Shown here: positions 6,956-11,015 of the stretch, piece by piece
Numbering within the stretch: the stretch's first letter is position 1
How the letters are laid out: each line of letters opens with the position of its first letter
Sequence record: PV654518
Reading direction: 5' to 3' (one strand)
DNA length: 11,151 bases
DNA from: Shigella phage vB_SHGBLB0004
The notes under the pieces: generated by a model
The model's database searches: none
What the model saw: the letters and a program-made list of their open reading frames with translations, nothing else
What the model was told of the DNA's origin: nothing
Program-made: the position numbers and the translations under genes

Positions 6956-8041
6956 TTAAATTCTCTTACAATATTTCAAGTAGTTGTTAATTGCATCGCC
7001 TACGTTATTATCTTGATAAAATACTTTATCATTGACAAAAAACCATCTGATGCGCTCTTGTACTCGGTTTACTGGCTTGAATACGCTCCTATTATAAGTG
7101 GGTTTAACATTAGGCTCAAGGGAATAAACCAAATCATCATCATTTTTTAAAGGAGTTGTCTTTAGGTGTATGAATGTAAAGTATAGGTCTTTAACATTGA
7201 TAACTTCACATTGAAATAGTTGGTCGGCAAAATCAATGAAATAAGTTAGTAATATATCTTTAGGTTTATATTTAACTGGTAAATGGGGGTATAGAGCCAG
7301 CTCCCACGCCCCGCCAGTTATCATAGATAATTTAGGGTTGTTAAATGCGAAGTATTTATGCGACTCACTATCAATATTTGTTTCGGTTGCTGCACAATAT
7401 TCAACCGCTACTTTCAACGGTGAGTTACCGTACTTGTAAACGTCTATCGTTCCCTGAGCCATATTAGAAATATTGGTCAATCCCATCTCTTTAAAATACG
7501 GACAGAATTTATTTACAGTATTCCCCAACATGTAAATTTTAACGTTCTCCCGACGTCTAACAATGGTTGAAACTGTATTCATGAAAATGACAAACTCCTC
7601 ATTTAAGTATAAGGAGTTAGTGAGGAATTCATCAAACACAATTAAATCTATGTTAGGGTATGACGTTGATTTATTGTGTTCCATGTCTGATAACGCAAAA
7701 GCGTAGCAGAATAAATCAGATTCGTTATAAACTGGTTTTCCGTTATCATCATTATTACATAAATACCATTTTCCTGATATATAGTGAATGTTTGTGTATT
7801 CACCATTTGTTATTTTAGAAACCTCCCCCGCTTCCAGTAGCCCATTAAATAGAGTTGCTGCACGTCTGCCTGTTAAATCCTCTTTCCATCGTCTAACATA
7901 TCCCATCTGTTTTTTATTTTCATAAAACAATTTAACCCCCTTTTTAAGTAGGGCAAATGTTTTACCATTAGATCTCTCCCCGAAAATTACTGAATAAGTG
8001 CAATCTTTTTTATCTATCTTACTTGGATTGTAATATTTCAT
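6956..8041 (-). CDS. DNA encapsidation (packaging) ATPase, phi29 gp16-like
   Basis: 361 aa. Walker A GERSNGKT near the N-terminus, then YVRRWKEDL and a Walker B-like LIVFDEF, the same motif order and spacing as I recall for phi29 gp16 (YNPQK...GARGIGKS, YVRRYKPEL, IVFDEF). ATG overlaps the polymerase stop (ATGA). Confidence 0.93.
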   Translation of the reverse strand: MKYYNPSKIDKKDCTYSVIFGERSNGKTFALLKKGVKLFYENKKQMGYVRRWKEDLTGRRAATLFNGLLEAGEVSKITNGEYTNIHYISGKWYLCNNDDNGKPVYNESDLFCYAFALSDMEHNKSTSYPNIDLIVFDEFLTNSLYLNEEFVIFMNTVSTIVRRRENVKIYMLGNTVNKFCPYFKEMGLTNISNMAQGTIDVYKYGNSPLKVAVEYCAATETNIDSESHKYFAFNNPKLSMITGGAWELALYPHLPVKYKPKDILLTYFIDFADQLFQCEVINVKDLYFTFIHLKTTPLKNDDDLVYSLEPNVKPTYNRSVFKPVNRVQERIRWFFVNDKVFYQDNNVGDAINNYLKYCKRI

Positions 8042-10167
8042 AGCGTTATCGAATCTCCGTTAAATGAATAGCCGTCCGCCTGTTTCTGTAAGAACCATTT
8101 GTAATCTTCTGTCATACTCATATCAAAAGAAGCTGGCTCTAAGTGCATTCCTGATAACGTTGTGACGTTAGCAGATTCTCCTAGGTAGTCAGTAGATATA
8201 AATCTTTTCTCACCCTCTACGTTTGTGTGTGTCATTTTACCAGTTCTATCAGCGGGAATAAACAACCCATCATTGAAAAGTGCAAAAATTGCGTTTGGGT
8301 TGTCGCCTGCTTTTTCTTTCATATACTCAAGCCCATTTTGTTTACTCAACCCTGCTACTGTTATCTGATAGTTACCGTTAATTTCTACTAAGTACCGCTT
8401 GGATCCTAACGTTTTAAATCTTGTGTAAGTTCCCTCGAAATCCCAAACCCCTAGAGGGGCTTTCTCTCCTTTTATTGTTTCAGGGCACAACATTTTCTTA
8501 TCTATTTGTAAGTGCTCACACATAACATTAAGTTTTTCAGTTATACACTTATTATAGAACTCGAAAAACGGTAAGTGTTTTTCTATGTTTAAGAATTTAA
8601 CACTATCGGTATCTGCATAAATATAATCATCTTTTATGTTTAAAATAGCTTGCCATAAATTGCGCCTAGCGTAAGCAGTAACCCAAATTCCCCACGGATA
8701 ATATAAGGCTCTATTTCTACTTTTATTATATTTCTCTAATTTTTCCTCTATATTAGCTGGCTCACACTCCCATTCATCATTTATAAAGGTGTGTTCGTCT
8801 TTAACGGGGTCTGTTACACACATTCCATAGGTTGAATTTAACATTCCTTTGGATAACATGTAATCATCCTCTCTCCCTACAACTCCTTTTAATTCCGTCT
8901 TATCTTTATACATATCCAAAATTTCAAATATTATTGCTCTAGGCAAGTAACCTTTCCTGAATGCCTTAGCCATAGTGAACTCAACTGATTCCCAAGTGTA
9001 AACGTGTTCGGCAATCATCAAATCAATATCTGTCATGTATGTTATTAATTCATCCGCTTCAAATATTCTTCCGTTTGCGTTTATGAAATCTCCTTTCACT
9101 GAGCATTTATGGACGCTTAAATATGATTCAAACCCTAGTTTATTTTTTAAACCTTTAAAGTGGGCTTGAAACATGATGCAATTATCAACCATTAGTTTTT
9201 TAACTTCATCAACTGAGTTTAATTTAAATGATACAGGTGAGCCCATCGGGAAACGTTCGGCACACATTACAGTAGGGTAGCTTGAAGTTAAATCGAAGCT
9301 AGAAACGTTTTCATGCGTCACCCAAGTCATTTTTGGGTTGCTGTGTGTGAATCCCCCTTGAAACGTATTTTTACACTGTTTATAAGTTTCAACATCCATA
9401 GTCATTGATTTTATTAGTTCGCTAGCTCTCTGTTTAACTCCTTGGCTGGCTTTTCGTTCTGTTTCAGCCCCTCCCCATAGGAAAGCTTTTTTTATTCGTG
9501 TTCTAACTCTGCCTGTGTTAGTCATTTCTATTTTATGAATGCCTTTAGCGTGTTTAATTTCTTTTGCTATGTAATTTCTGACTACAATTATGTCATTTTC
9601 ACAATATCCCATTTCTTTTTCTGTTAATGGTGTTTTGTGGTGTCTAACTAATGAGTAGTCTAAATCACCCTCCATTTTCTTACACGCATATTCCCCTATT
9701 AAATTCCTAGCCATGTTAGCTAGTGATGAACCTGATAATTTCATTGAACATCTAAATTCAATTCCACAATCAGCAACAGCTTTTAATACGCTACCTCTAG
9801 CCATAGCAAAAACCGATTCCCAGTTAAACAGGTGTTTAATGAACTGGAATTCATAGCTTAAGTTATGAACATAAATGACAATTCGACGGTCTACGTGAAG
9901 CCCGTAAGTAACCTGTAATAAACTAGTTAGCTCTAAAAACTCATCCCAAGTTCTACCATAGTAAACAGGCTCGTTCATGCCAATACCGAATTGCCAGATA
10001 TACATATAAGCAACTTTCTCGCCCTGCTGATATTCACTAGTCGTTTCTATATCGAAAGCTGATTCTATGTTTAGATATTCAGTTTTCATCTTACCTTTTT
10101 GTGAAGTCACAATTTCAGGGTTTATCTCGTATAGTCTATCTGATGTTAACTCGGTGTAATGTTTCAT
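8038..10167 (-). CDS. Protein-primed family-B DNA polymerase, phi29 gp2-like
   Basis: 709 aa with the full ordered motif set: Exo I SAFDIETTS, Exo II YVHNLSYEFQFI, Exo III YCENDIIVV, motif A FDLTSSYPTVM (Dx2SLYP), motif B KGMLNSTYG (Kx3NSxYG), motif C YIYADTDSV (YxDTDS) and KxY SKRYLV. An internal ATG near 10089 (M27, preceded by AAAGG) is an alternative start that would place Exo I at the phi29-like distance from the N-terminus. Confidence 0.97.
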   Translation of the reverse strand: MKHYTELTSDRLYEINPEIVTSQKGKMKTEYLNIESAFDIETTSEYQQGEKVAYMYIWQFGIGMNEPVYYGRTWDEFLELTSLLQVTYGLHVDRRIVIYVHNLSYEFQFIKHLFNWESVFAMARGSVLKAVADCGIEFRCSMKLSGSSLANMARNLIGEYACKKMEGDLDYSLVRHHKTPLTEKEMGYCENDIIVVRNYIAKEIKHAKGIHKIEMTNTGRVRTRIKKAFLWGGAETERKASQGVKQRASELIKSMTMDVETYKQCKNTFQGGFTHSNPKMTWVTHENVSSFDLTSSYPTVMCAERFPMGSPVSFKLNSVDEVKKLMVDNCIMFQAHFKGLKNKLGFESYLSVHKCSVKGDFINANGRIFEADELITYMTDIDLMIAEHVYTWESVEFTMAKAFRKGYLPRAIIFEILDMYKDKTELKGVVGREDDYMLSKGMLNSTYGMCVTDPVKDEHTFINDEWECEPANIEEKLEKYNKSRNRALYYPWGIWVTAYARRNLWQAILNIKDDYIYADTDSVKFLNIEKHLPFFEFYNKCITEKLNVMCEHLQIDKKMLCPETIKGEKAPLGVWDFEGTYTRFKTLGSKRYLVEINGNYQITVAGLSKQNGLEYMKEKAGDNPNAIFALFNDGLFIPADRTGKMTHTNVEGEKRFISTDYLGESANVTTLSGMHLEPASFDMSMTEDYKWFLQKQADGYSFNGDSITL

Positions 10168-10169
10168 TG

Positions 10170-10769
10170 CTAGCCTATTACTATAAATTTAGGGTCTAGG
10201 AAAAAAGGCTCATACATTCTTCCCTTTGATACTTCTAATATAGATTCAACTTCCGCTAGTAGTTCATCTACTGATGTTTTAGCATCCGATAAATCTATTT
10301 CCTGTTCTTTAACGTAGTGATTAATGCTATTCCATATTTGACGATAATCTAACGCCGCTGCTATTTCCCCTTGGCTCTTTAAGTATTGAGTTATTTTACT
10401 TTGCACCTCAAAGAACTTTTTCATTTTCACTTTTAAATCTTTAACTGAATTATATGTGATCCCAGTTATGTTTGCTATTTCCTTTGCGTTATTTGTAGCT
10501 CCTGTTATTGTTGACGTTTCCGCTTTGAGGAATTTTAATAACCTACCAGCCATGTTTTGAACTTCCTGATGCGTCTTACCTTTAACACTGAATTTAGCAA
10601 TACCCTCATTTTTTAATGTCTTTAAAGCGGGGCTGTCTGCCCAGTCTCTATTTTCCAGTCGTTTCATTCTCTTATTTGCGATAGCTGATAATCTACTAAT
10701 CTCTTTTCTGAATGCTTGTGCGTCTAATAACCAAATAGTATCTTCATTAATGCTAGTTCTGCGAGCCAT
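10170..10769 (-). CDS. Putative terminal protein (replication primer), 199 aa
   Basis: It lies immediately upstream of, and is co-transcribed with, the protein-primed polymerase, as phi29 gene 3 does. The N-terminus is basic and starts MARRTS (phi29 TP starts MARSP as I recall). Strong RBS AAGAGGG. It is shorter than known terminal proteins and the priming residue is not identifiable by eye. Confidence 0.55.
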   Translation of the reverse strand: MARRTSINEDTIWLLDAQAFRKEISRLSAIANKRMKRLENRDWADSPALKTLKNEGIAKFSVKGKTHQEVQNMAGRLLKFLKAETSTITGATNNAKEIANITGITYNSVKDLKVKMKKFFEVQSKITQYLKSQGEIAAALDYRQIWNSINHYVKEQEIDLSDAKTSVDELLAEVESILEVSKGRMYEPFFLDPKFIVIG

Positions 10770-10772
10770 ATA

Positions 10773-11015
10773 TTAACCCTCTTTTTTGTTGCGTTTTAAT
10801 TGTAATTCAATTTGATAGTTAACGTAATAATCAAACTCACTTTTTTGATTCATTTCAATTGCTATTTCTAAATAACGTTCAAAATGATTAATATTAGTTG
10901 ACCGTCCGTTTTCAAATGCAGATACTGCTTTGACTTTTTCGCTACCATAAATTTGTGATTGTGTCAAACCTGCTGACACTCTCCACATATAACACGCTCT
11001 ATGAAGTTGTAACAT
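10773..11015 (-). CDS. XRE-family helix-turn-helix transcriptional regulator (80 aa)
   Basis: The segment RVSAGLTQSQIYGSEKVKAVSAFENGRSTNINHFERYLEIA fits the HTH_XRE pattern (GLTQ..., then E-N-G-R, then hydrophobic helix). It is the first gene after the right-end promoter. RBS AAAGGGGA. Confidence 0.8.
   Translation of the reverse strand: MLQLHRACYMWRVSAGLTQSQIYGSEKVKAVSAFENGRSTNINHFERYLEIAIEMNQKSEFDYYVNYQIELQLKRNKKEG

Follow-up and report, generated by a model that had tools for sequence, protein, structure and literature searches.

Bacillus phage phi29 carries a left early operon (genes 6-5-4-3-2-1) and a late operon (genes 7-16), with the ATPase gene 16 as the last late gene. Its early and late genes diverge from the A2/A3 promoter region and are controlled by p4 and p6 (PMC11476376 section 2.1.1). 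Among the phi29-type phages of Gram-negative bacteria are the Astrithrvirus-like phages, which are cluster 23 of Evseev et al. 2024 and whose genome organization has already been mapped (PMC11476376 section 2.6, Figure 12). [quoted passage not shown]

Shigella phage vB_SHGBLB0004 (PV654518) has a complete linear genome of 11,151 nt with an inverted terminal repeat (ITR) at both ends, and this entire genome is the window analysed here. The phage is a new relative within the published Astrithrvirus-like clade. It shares with these phages a linear genome of ~11 kb with ITRs, the same order from the small first gene to the lysin gene, an ATGA overlap of the polymerase and ATPase genes, a terminator-bearing gap 3' of the capsid gene, and small convergent genes at the opposite end. 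The gene order is common to ~85 related genomes and contigs, so the arrangement is not due to chance. An earlier sequence-only reading took the one-directional layout to be unusual; it is in fact the clade's standard design and already known. At the sequence level vB_SHGBLB0004 is more distant, with amino acid identities to the isolates of only 48-52% for the polymerase and 61-70% for the ATPase. A nucleotide-level search against deposited phages gave no match, so under the nucleotide-identity criterion normally applied vB_SHGBLB0004 falls outside the genus. Its nearest match, at 74% polymerase identity, is an uncultivated IMG/VR contig. The 60-nt ITR is shorter than in Astrithrvirus-like relatives (range among relatives, 60-266 nt), and the terminal sequence is unlike the GGG(A/T)TATCC ends of several of them. 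The genes and genome ends are as follows.

11092-11151, no strand: ITR, left end in gene direction, a perfect 60-nt inverted repeat of 1-60
10773-11015, minus strand: g1, 80-aa putative XRE-type helix-turn-helix protein (profile, AF2/Foldseek)
10170-10769, minus strand: g2, 199 aa, terminal-protein candidate by position only
8038-10167, minus strand: protein-primed family B DNA polymerase, 709 aa (Pfam DNA_pol_B_2, E 4.7e-19; PHROG 1907)
8038-8041, minus strand: ATGA stop/start overlap of the polymerase and ATPase genes
6956-8041, minus strand: gp16-type DNA packaging ATPase, 361 aa (Pfam Podovirus_Gp16, E 5.2e-21)
6760-6954, minus strand: g5, 64-aa holin-like membrane protein (PHROG 4898, holin, E 5.8e-10)
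5657-6763, minus strand: g6, upper collar connector (Pfam Phage_connector; PHROG 2038)
5106-5654, minus strand: g7, 182-aa protein, syntenic in relatives, scaffold candidate by position
3941-5092, minus strand: g8, phi29-type major capsid protein (Pfam Phi29_MCP, E 6.5e-65)
3444-3881, minus strand: g9, N-terminal part of the tail knob, corrected start ATG 3881
1475-3442, minus strand: g10, 655-aa C-terminal part of the tail knob / distal tail protein
1023-1478, minus strand: g11, CHAP-domain lysin (Pfam CHAP; PHROG endolysin families)
673-978, plus strand: r3, right-end unit
472-624, plus strand: r2, right-end unit
168-458, plus strand: r1, right-end unit, corrected start
1-60, no strand: ITR, right end, a perfect 60-nt inverted repeat of 11092-11151

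The minus-strand array is composed of 11 genes: g1, g2, the polymerase and ATPase genes, and then the morphogenesis and lysis genes. The stretch flagged in the sequence-only reading, 8038-11015, forms the promoter-proximal section of this array. The co-directional order proposed in that reading is confirmed, and no phi29-style divergent early/late layout is present; that reading left out the three convergent plus-strand genes. Phi29 DNA polymerase is the sole PDB sequence match of the 709-aa protein, and the 361-aa ATPase matches phi29 gp16 chains in the PDB (5HD9, 7JQQ). Astrid ORF10 and Phanie gp10 share the conserved C-terminal 250 aa of g10. Apart from the capsid/tail-knob junction, the junctions along the array measure 3, 2, -4, 1, -4, 2, 13, 1 and -4 nt. 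The overlap that places the ATPase gene directly on the polymerase gene is a true one, found in 56 of 82 loci (36 of 45 after dereplication), and a GGAG/GGGG Shine-Dalgarno sequence lies 10-14 nt upstream. Such tight junctions suggest that the enzyme genes may be translationally coupled.

The order of helix-turn-helix regulator, terminal protein and polymerase had been likened to phi29 genes 4-3-2. By position the parallel stands; by protein it does not, as g1 is not p4-like and g2 has no terminal-protein match. g2 is found directly upstream of the polymerase gene in all relatives, and its conserved residues are S25, T85-S86-T87, Y129 and Y142. Its model is all-helical and had no match in the PDB, and neither sequence nor fold showed a detectable likeness to the phi29 terminal protein. 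A homologue of g2 is labelled as the terminal protein in a review (PMC11476376).

On the models, g1 looks like an XRE-type helix-turn-helix protein. The best PDB hit of the g1 family profile is SinR (E 0.066), and in relatives the Pfam families HTH_19 and HTH_3 are matched below threshold; a Pfam search with g1 of vB_SHGBLB0004 itself gave no match. The AF2 model is all-helical with a pLDDT of 92, one of five models being confident. Foldseek matches of this model are nearly all XRE proteins (E 0.5-2), led by C.Esp1396I (probability 0.96). Phi29 p4, in contrast, has an alpha/beta N-hook fold, and homology of g1 and p4 was rejected because the predicted fold of g1 differs from it.

The predicted control elements were located directly in the genome, and their conservation was counted directly among relatives.

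11071-11089, no strand: perfect 19-bp palindrome TATCTATTG-N-CAATAGATA, overlapping the P1 -35, candidate operator
11054-11083, minus strand: P1, predicted terminal sigma-70-type promoter TTGACA-N18-TAATAT, upstream of g1
7091-7119, minus strand: P2, predicted sigma-70-type promoter TTGAGC-N17-TATAAT, inside the 3' end of the ATPase gene
5158-5186, minus strand: P3, predicted sigma-70-type promoter TTGCAA-N17-TATTAT, inside the 3' end of g7, upstream of the capsid gene
3895-3920, minus strand: T1, intrinsic terminator AAAACCGCC-GACAAT-GGCGGTTTTTT, directly 3' of the capsid gene (sequence prediction)
998-1018, no strand: T2, predicted bidirectional terminator hairpin where both units converge
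109-137, plus strand: PR, predicted promoter-like site TTGACT-N17-TACCAT, for the right-end unit

Of the 21 relatives with the left end retained, 12 have a near-consensus promoter 53-68 nt upstream of the g1 start. The palindrome occurs once in the genome, with 0.01 chance matches expected, and a similar TCTATTGACAWTAGA-like element is found at P1 in relatives. Neither a copy of it nor an enrichment of its half-site was found near P2, P3 or PR.

All 11 genes of 46 dereplicated loci were scanned without bias for internal promoters, and the counts were compared with a null in which synonymous codons are resampled while protein sequence and codon usage stay unchanged. P2 is present in 24 of 44 loci (null 5.3 +/- 2.1; gene-wide 99th percentile 11) and P3 in 13 of 27 (null 1.5 +/- 1.2; 99th percentile 4.5), where shared ancestry is handled only by dereplication at 85% ATPase identity. 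With all loci the counts are 28 of 57 against 6.7 for P2 and 20 of 38 against 2.5 for P3. No other embedded promoter in the scan exceeded the gene-wide null. Because an invariant Tyr-Asn pair dictates most of the P2 -10, the signal there comes from two or three synonymous positions only. The Asn codon supplying the last -10 base is AAT in 39/39 loci (pooled share 0.59), and a Leu codon is CTT in 19/39 (share 0.14). P3 sits at a fixed position: its -10, built from the Ala-Ile codons GCT-ATT, starts 57 nt ahead of the g7 stop codon, and a Leu codon is TTG at a fixed position in ~20/27 loci (share 0.17). Phanie and several distant relatives have a perfect TTGACA-N17-TATAAT at this site, and P3 is kept, often as perfect consensus, in relatives whose g7 protein has diverged beyond detectable similarity. 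In vB_SHGBLB0004 itself P2 matches the consensus at 10/12 positions and P3 at 9/12, which leaves their strength in this phage uncertain.

The capsid/tail-knob junction departs from the rest. The earlier description of gaps of 13 nt or less, often ATGA overlaps, holds at all other junctions; here a GTG at 3944, giving a -4 overlap with the capsid gene, was rejected as the g9 start. The true start is ATG 3881, preceded by a strong AGGGGG Shine-Dalgarno sequence, and the gap is 59 nt. Relatives have a median gap of 60 nt, and an independent gene caller placed the g9 start of a near-identical contig 58 nt past the capsid stop. Start-codon miscalls at the overlaps had been named as something that would count against the sequence-only reading, and this junction is one. 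The miscall hides the predicted regulatory element T1, which lies within the corrected gap. Of 31 dereplicated relatives, 25 have a strict terminator at this site, with stem sequences that vary from one relative to another; the background rate is 0.018 per 133 nt. Gene-strand terminators cluster at two places only, 3' of the capsid gene and 3' of g11; the latter holds in 14/14 dereplicated loci with g11 called.

Downstream of g11, r1-r3 appear to be a second transcription unit, convergent on the main array at T2. For r1 the start was corrected to ATG 168: the long open reading frame is homologous to relatives only from residue 15 onward, and an AGGA Shine-Dalgarno sequence lies before this ATG. 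Inward-facing near-consensus promoters are found in the right arm of several relatives.

Taken together, the array probably does not act as a single uniform operon, and its expression would be graded by position rather than by a phi29-type early/late switch. From sequence, we infer promoter and terminator functions for these elements in vB_SHGBLB0004. P1 at the genome end would drive the whole array, and g1 probably binds the 19-bp palindrome there, regulating its own promoter. The low-copy enzymes (terminal-protein candidate, polymerase and ATPase), joined by tight junctions, would rely on P1 alone. P2 would supply extra transcripts for the holin-like protein, the connector, gene 7 and the capsid gene, and P3 further transcripts for the capsid gene. 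T1 would lower read-through into the tail and lysin genes, and T2 would close both the main array and the three-gene right-end unit. The sequence-only reading found no intergenic late promoter, which is borne out for the main array since P2 and P3 sit within coding sequence. The comparative picture, with P2 and P3, a conserved T1 and a conserved ATGA junction with its Shine-Dalgarno sequence, agrees with its suggestion that control works through internal promoters, attenuation or translational coupling.

A simpler account is a plain polycistronic operon transcribed from P1 only, in which Shine-Dalgarno strength and ATGA coupling set amounts and the embedded motifs do not act as promoters but arise from peptide conservation and AT-rich codons. 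The short junctions (all but one at most 13 nt), a Shine-Dalgarno sequence at each gene and the encoding of the P2 -10 by Tyr-Asn would agree with it, as would the number of promoter-like matches over the whole genome, which is no higher than in genome-wide shuffles (45 vs 41 +/- 6). This account is nonetheless unlikely. P2 and P3, alone among positions in the 11 genes, beat a null that preserves protein and codons, the Asn codon is AAT without exception, the TTG and CTT Leu codons are enriched, and P3 outlives recognizable similarity of the protein encoding it. Transcription also appears punctuated, because the terminator 3' of the capsid gene is conserved.

A true phi29-type switch, with g1 repressing P1, later activating P2 and/or P3 and so filling in for p4 despite its different fold, seems slightly less probable still. 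The predicted DNA-binding protein g1 is the first gene transcribed, a perfect palindrome overlaps the P1 -35, and the closest folds are restriction-modification controller (C) proteins, which time expression via concentration-dependent activation and repression. However, the palindrome is confined to P1, and many relatives have P2 and P3 sequences that reach or nearly reach full consensus, so an activator should be unnecessary. No terminator lies between the P1-driven genes and the structural genes, and P1 transcripts would thus enter the latter from the start. A third possibility, in which vB_SHGBLB0004 depends on a helper and its timing is set by the helper phage or by host factors and not by its own genome, is very improbable. 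Like Phanie, which is reported to require a helper myophage (PMC11476376 section 2.6, citing Pourcel et al. 2024), vB_SHGBLB0004 has its tail knob split into g9 and g10. As described in that section, however, the dependence of Phanie concerns virion infectivity, through attachment to the helper's tail, and not transcription. vB_SHGBLB0004 also has its own predicted sigma-70-type promoters and terminators.

Besides the Astrithrvirus-like phages, three known systems are close to vB_SHGBLB0004. It has homologues of the phi29 polymerase, packaging ATPase, connector and capsid protein; like phi29 it has ITRs and encodes a small protein just before the polymerase, at the place of the terminal protein. 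It differs from phi29 in that regulator to lysin all run in one direction with the ATPase directly after the polymerase; a search for a pRNA found no match. g1 resembles C proteins such as C.Esp1396I and other small XRE-family regulators in fold match, in small size, and in being the first gene of its own operon with a palindrome overlapping its own promoter. It differs from them in lacking a significant sequence match, and its turn region, on a reading of the profile alignment, is 2 residues shorter than the canonical motif. The microvirus phiX174 is unrelated, with a circular ssDNA genome, no tail and no protein-primed replication. It is not known to have an early/late switch and uses promoters pA, pB and pD with terminators after J, F, G and H. 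The likeness to phiX174 is one of working mode rather than ancestry, predicted from sequence on the vB_SHGBLB0004 side: a compact one-direction genome with overlapping genes, in which coding-embedded promoters and leaky terminators grade transcript abundance.

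Because a perfect 60-nt inverted terminal repeat (ITR) flanks the 11,151-bp window at both ends, it is apparently a linear genome in full. Its size and ITR match the linear genomes of ~10-12 kb, with ITRs of 60-266 nt, that characterize the Astrithrvirus-like, phi29-type clade. The minus strand carries eleven genes in tandem (g1-g11; 11015 to 1023), and the plus strand has three small ones (r1-r3) at the opposite end. Profile searches identified a protein-primed family B polymerase (Pfam DNA_pol_B_2), a phi29 gp16-type packaging ATPase, a phi29-type connector and major capsid protein, a holin-like membrane protein, an N-terminal piece of the tail knob, and a CHAP lysin. 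The content and order are those of the clade: a small gene, a terminal-protein candidate, polymerase, ATPase, a small membrane protein, connector, gene 7, capsid, a split tail knob, lysin, and small genes on the reverse strand.

Synteny was assessed by tblastn against six isolates and ~80 IMG/VR contigs. Among deposited phages, tblastn recovered the Astrithrvirus group (polymerase identity 48-52%), comprising Salmonella phages Astrid, astrithr, assan and S.Kent 1-2-1, Acinetobacter phage Phanie, Pectobacterium phage DU_PP_III, Enterobacter phage Entb_47, and Vibrio phage K58 g2. The annotated records of these relatives have an identical gene order, including the 4-nt overlap of the polymerase and ATPase genes. 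All of the ~80 further contigs from the IMG/VR scans share this order, the nearest with 74% polymerase identity, and near-identical contigs are present in three sequencing runs. Genus membership requires high nucleotide identity over the genome (~70% in ICTV practice). On that measure the phage falls outside Astrithrvirus in the strict sense, with no nucleotide-level relative found by megablast among 50,697 deposited phage records and a polymerase 52% identical to those of the isolates. The phage adds a new and fairly divergent member to an already described clade, for which gene maps were published in a 2024 review (PMC11476376). The co-directional layout, which the sequence-only reading took to be unusual, is a known hallmark of that clade.

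The window ends (1-60 and 11092-11151) start with CACACCGGTATCATC. In Astrid, the reverse complement of this motif, GATGATACCGG, lies ~18 nt inside the end, and several relatives start differently, with GGG(A/T)TATCC and then a C-run (ends compared in L001, L002, L004, L083 and L093). A few terminal bases may be absent from the contig ends of the window, and the sliding-back initiation repeat is therefore not readable there. The deposited sequence of Vibrio phage K58 g2 (OZ195715) opens at the ATPase gene and closes within the polymerase gene; as its start and end fall inside the gene array, it represents a linear genome whose assembly was permuted or artificially circularised. Short, G-rich, telomere-like repeats such as GGGGTCGGGGTCGGGGTC and GGGCTAGGGCTAGGGTTCG occupy the left arms of four relatives (L004, L005, L017 and L023) between the ITR and P1, the predicted promoter of the first gene, and are absent from the window. 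Motors of the phi29 gp16 type use a packaging RNA, the pRNA. When the whole window was searched with Rfam at E values up to 1, no phage pRNA was found, only two matches at chance level. The non-coding ends of the window are just ~125-136 nt long.

The third gene of the array, as in the phi29 4-3-2 arrangement, encodes a protein-primed family B polymerase (DNA_pol_B_2, E 4.7e-19), whose sole match among PDB sequences is the phi29 polymerase (E 1.5e-9). The ATPase that follows matches phi29 gp16 in the same sequence set. Both the gene order and the ATGA overlap of polymerase and ATPase hold up. Most loci of the clade overlap in this way (56 of 82, and 36 of 45 after dereplication), and a GGAG/GGGG Shine-Dalgarno sequence lies within the polymerase gene 10-14 nt 5' of the ATGA junction. 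The nine other dereplicated relatives (L058-L060, L064, L081 and L086 among them) have a gap of 2-332 nt and no overlap; a small gene may have been inserted in the larger gaps.

The remaining junctions of the window measure 3, 2, 1, -4, 2, 13, 1, and -4 nt. Gaps of 13 nt or less, often ATGA overlaps, had been read from the sequence alone for the whole array, which fails at the junction of capsid and tail knob. There, overlap would need a start at GTG 3944, and the evidence favors ATG 3881: the gap in relatives has a median of 60 nt, a separate gene caller placed the tail-knob start of a near-identical contig 58 nt past the capsid stop, and AGGGGG lies 5' of ATG 3881. The resulting 59-nt gap, where no intergenic regulatory site had been expected, contains T1, AAAACCGCC-GACAAT-GGCGGTTTTTT, by sequence a textbook intrinsic terminator with a GC-rich hairpin and a T-run (near 3895). 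Its position is conserved and its stem varies. Under strict settings, a hairpin with a T-run occurs at this junction in 25 of 31 dereplicated relatives with differing stem sequences, against a background of 0.018 sites per 133 nt, and the folding z-score of T1 is -2.7. Across the clade, gene-strand terminators cluster after the capsid gene and after the last gene only. Distant Guelinviridae-like relatives (L009, L011, L012 and L014) mostly keep a GC-rich hairpin after the capsid gene and lack P3, the second predicted embedded promoter described below. Since the hairpin is found there too, the post-capsid terminator may be older than the Gram-negative clade.

Between the capsid stop and the hairpin of T1 there is a perfect extended -10 element, TGATATAAT (3930-3922). 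Given its place just 5' of T1, a promoter whose transcripts perhaps escape termination had been considered. It was rejected as unconserved, since it occurs at 7 of 25 loci where 7.5 are expected.

Promoters embedded in coding sequence were sought by aligning all 11 genes over 46 dereplicated loci and counting promoter-like matches per aligned position. In the null, every codon was redrawn from the synonymous usage of the same genome. Exactly two positions, P2 and P3, rose above the gene-wide null. They are given here with the promoter-like site of the right-end unit:

7119-7091, minus strand: P2, predicted promoter in the 3' end of the ATPase gene, TTGAGC-N17-TATAAT; 24 of 44 loci against a null of 5.3 +/- 2.1 (gene-wide 99th percentile 11)
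5186-5158, minus strand: P3, predicted promoter in the 3' end of gene 7, TTGCAA-N17-TATTAT; 13 of 27 loci against a null of 1.5 +/- 1.2 (gene-wide 99th percentile 4.5)
109-137, plus strand: promoter-like site of the right-end unit; near-consensus inward promoters occur in the same arm of several relatives

P2 and P3 have the -35 and -10 hexamers and the 16-18 nt spacing of sigma-70 promoters, at positions conserved beyond coding constraint. Codon choice agrees with the scan. The final T of the P2 -10 element comes from the Asn codon of a Tyr-Asn pair, for which 39 of 39 loci use AAT (pooled share 0.59); in the -35 element of P2, a Leu codon is CTT in 19 of 39 (share 0.14). For P3, ~20 of 27 loci have TTG as the Leu codon of the -35 element, at a fixed position (share 0.17), and in the window the Ala-Ile codons GCT-ATT form the -10 element. 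Moreover, P3 is a perfect consensus in Phanie and also in several distant relatives, in which the gene 7 protein has diverged past recognition. A motif in the 3' end of the polymerase gene, 83-88 nt before the ATPase start and present at 16 of 81 loci, was rejected after codon resampling (10 of 73 against 6.4 expected).

P1 consists of TTGACA-N18-TAATAT 5' of the first gene, and 12 of the 21 relatives that retain this end have a near-consensus promoter at its position. Its -35 element lies within a perfect 19-bp palindrome (11071-11089) that occurs once in the window and has a similar counterpart in relatives. Neither the palindrome nor a half-site was found above chance near P2, P3 or PR, the promoter-like site of the right-end unit. 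As this candidate operator does not recur, the protein encoded by g1 probably acts on P1 only.

The g1 product (80 aa) is likely a small HTH regulator. It has no Pfam match, HTH_3 and related profiles included. A family profile of 24 homologues placed SinR and other XRE-type proteins on top (best E 0.066), and sub-threshold Pfam matches among the relatives were to HTH_19 (6 of 24, best E 0.0043) and HTH_3 (E 0.0016). One of five AF2 models was confident (pLDDT 92) and predicts the five-helix bundle of XRE-type HTH proteins. Its Foldseek matches are nearly all of this type, led by restriction-modification controller proteins (probability 0.96, TM ~0.6, E 0.5-2). The first gene had been equated with phi29 gene 4. 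No p4 entry appeared among the PDB sequence or fold matches of g1, and as its profile and model match XRE-type HTH proteins alone, the two are not homologous.

The g2 product (199 aa) is conserved, helical, and always encoded next to the polymerase gene. We infer that it is the terminal protein from this position, the ITRs and the polymerase type. Neither Foldseek with the g2 model (pLDDT only 68) nor a family-profile search of PDB sequences matched the phi29 terminal protein. Terminal proteins diverge fast, so the lack of a match to the terminal-protein chain of PDB entry 2EX3, the phi29 polymerase-terminal protein complex, is not decisive. The best profile match of g2, a nucleoporin coiled coil (E 0.0057), is probably an artefact of helical composition.

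The three plus-strand genes meet the main array at a bidirectional hairpin (998-1018). With these convergent genes, the genome consists of two inward-facing units, not one. The first, r1, probably starts at 168 rather than 126, because it is homologous to relatives only from residue 15 onward, with AGGA 5' of ATG 168. A tandem 8-mer, TAGTACAC TAGTACAC, lies at 73-88, just outside the ITR and immediately 5' of TTGACA (89-94); a regulator of the right-end unit could bind there. The best conserved gene of this end is r3 (673-978; 48-63% identity to isolates), which had no family match in profile searches. Proteins resembling phi29 p5/p6 are marked on the genome map of this clade (PMC11476376), and r3 may be one of them. 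At the distal end of the main array, conservation of g10 (1475-3442) is limited to the C-terminal ~250 residues. The N-terminal part varies in sequence and length, as expected of a host-range module. Ig-like domains have been reported in the g10 region, and Phanie virions are reported to attach to the tail of a helper myophage (PMC11476376).

The array is most likely a graded-dosage design, as read from its arrangement of sites. Transcripts from P1 could traverse the whole array up to T1, because no terminator lies between. P1 would be the only promoter for the terminal-protein candidate, polymerase and ATPase, which are needed in few copies and whose translation would be tight and probably coupled. 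Extra message for the genes from the holin-like protein through connector and gene 7 to the capsid would come from P2, P3 would add further message for the capsid gene, and T1 would cut down read-through to the tail and lysin genes. Such graded dosage resembles phiX174 in its logic, rather than the p4/p6 switch of phi29. The sequence-only reading was right that regulation does not follow the phi29 layout, and its guess of internal promoters and attenuation is supported by the conserved P2, P3 and post-capsid T1.

The hosts of these phages, which rank with the smallest known tailed phages, are Gram-negative and include Salmonella, Acinetobacter and Enterobacter. Understanding how so small a genome (11 kb) makes its enzymes and its capsid protein in very different copy numbers helps with annotation and engineering, and with comparison of regulation across the phi29 lineage. 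Start-codon miscalls in these genomes conceal regulatory elements. A literature search found no transcription study of the Astrithrvirus-like clade. The useful yield of this analysis is comparative evidence that two promoters are embedded in coding sequence and that a terminator is conserved after the capsid gene; it is testable in cultivable relatives. A broader proposal, which we put forward tentatively and would sooner doubt than assert, is that the whole clade lacks the phi29 early/late switch and runs a largely constitutive, phiX174-like programme, with a P1-P2-P3 staircase written through synonymous codons, a post-capsid attenuator, and a controller-like HTH protein on the terminal promoter only.
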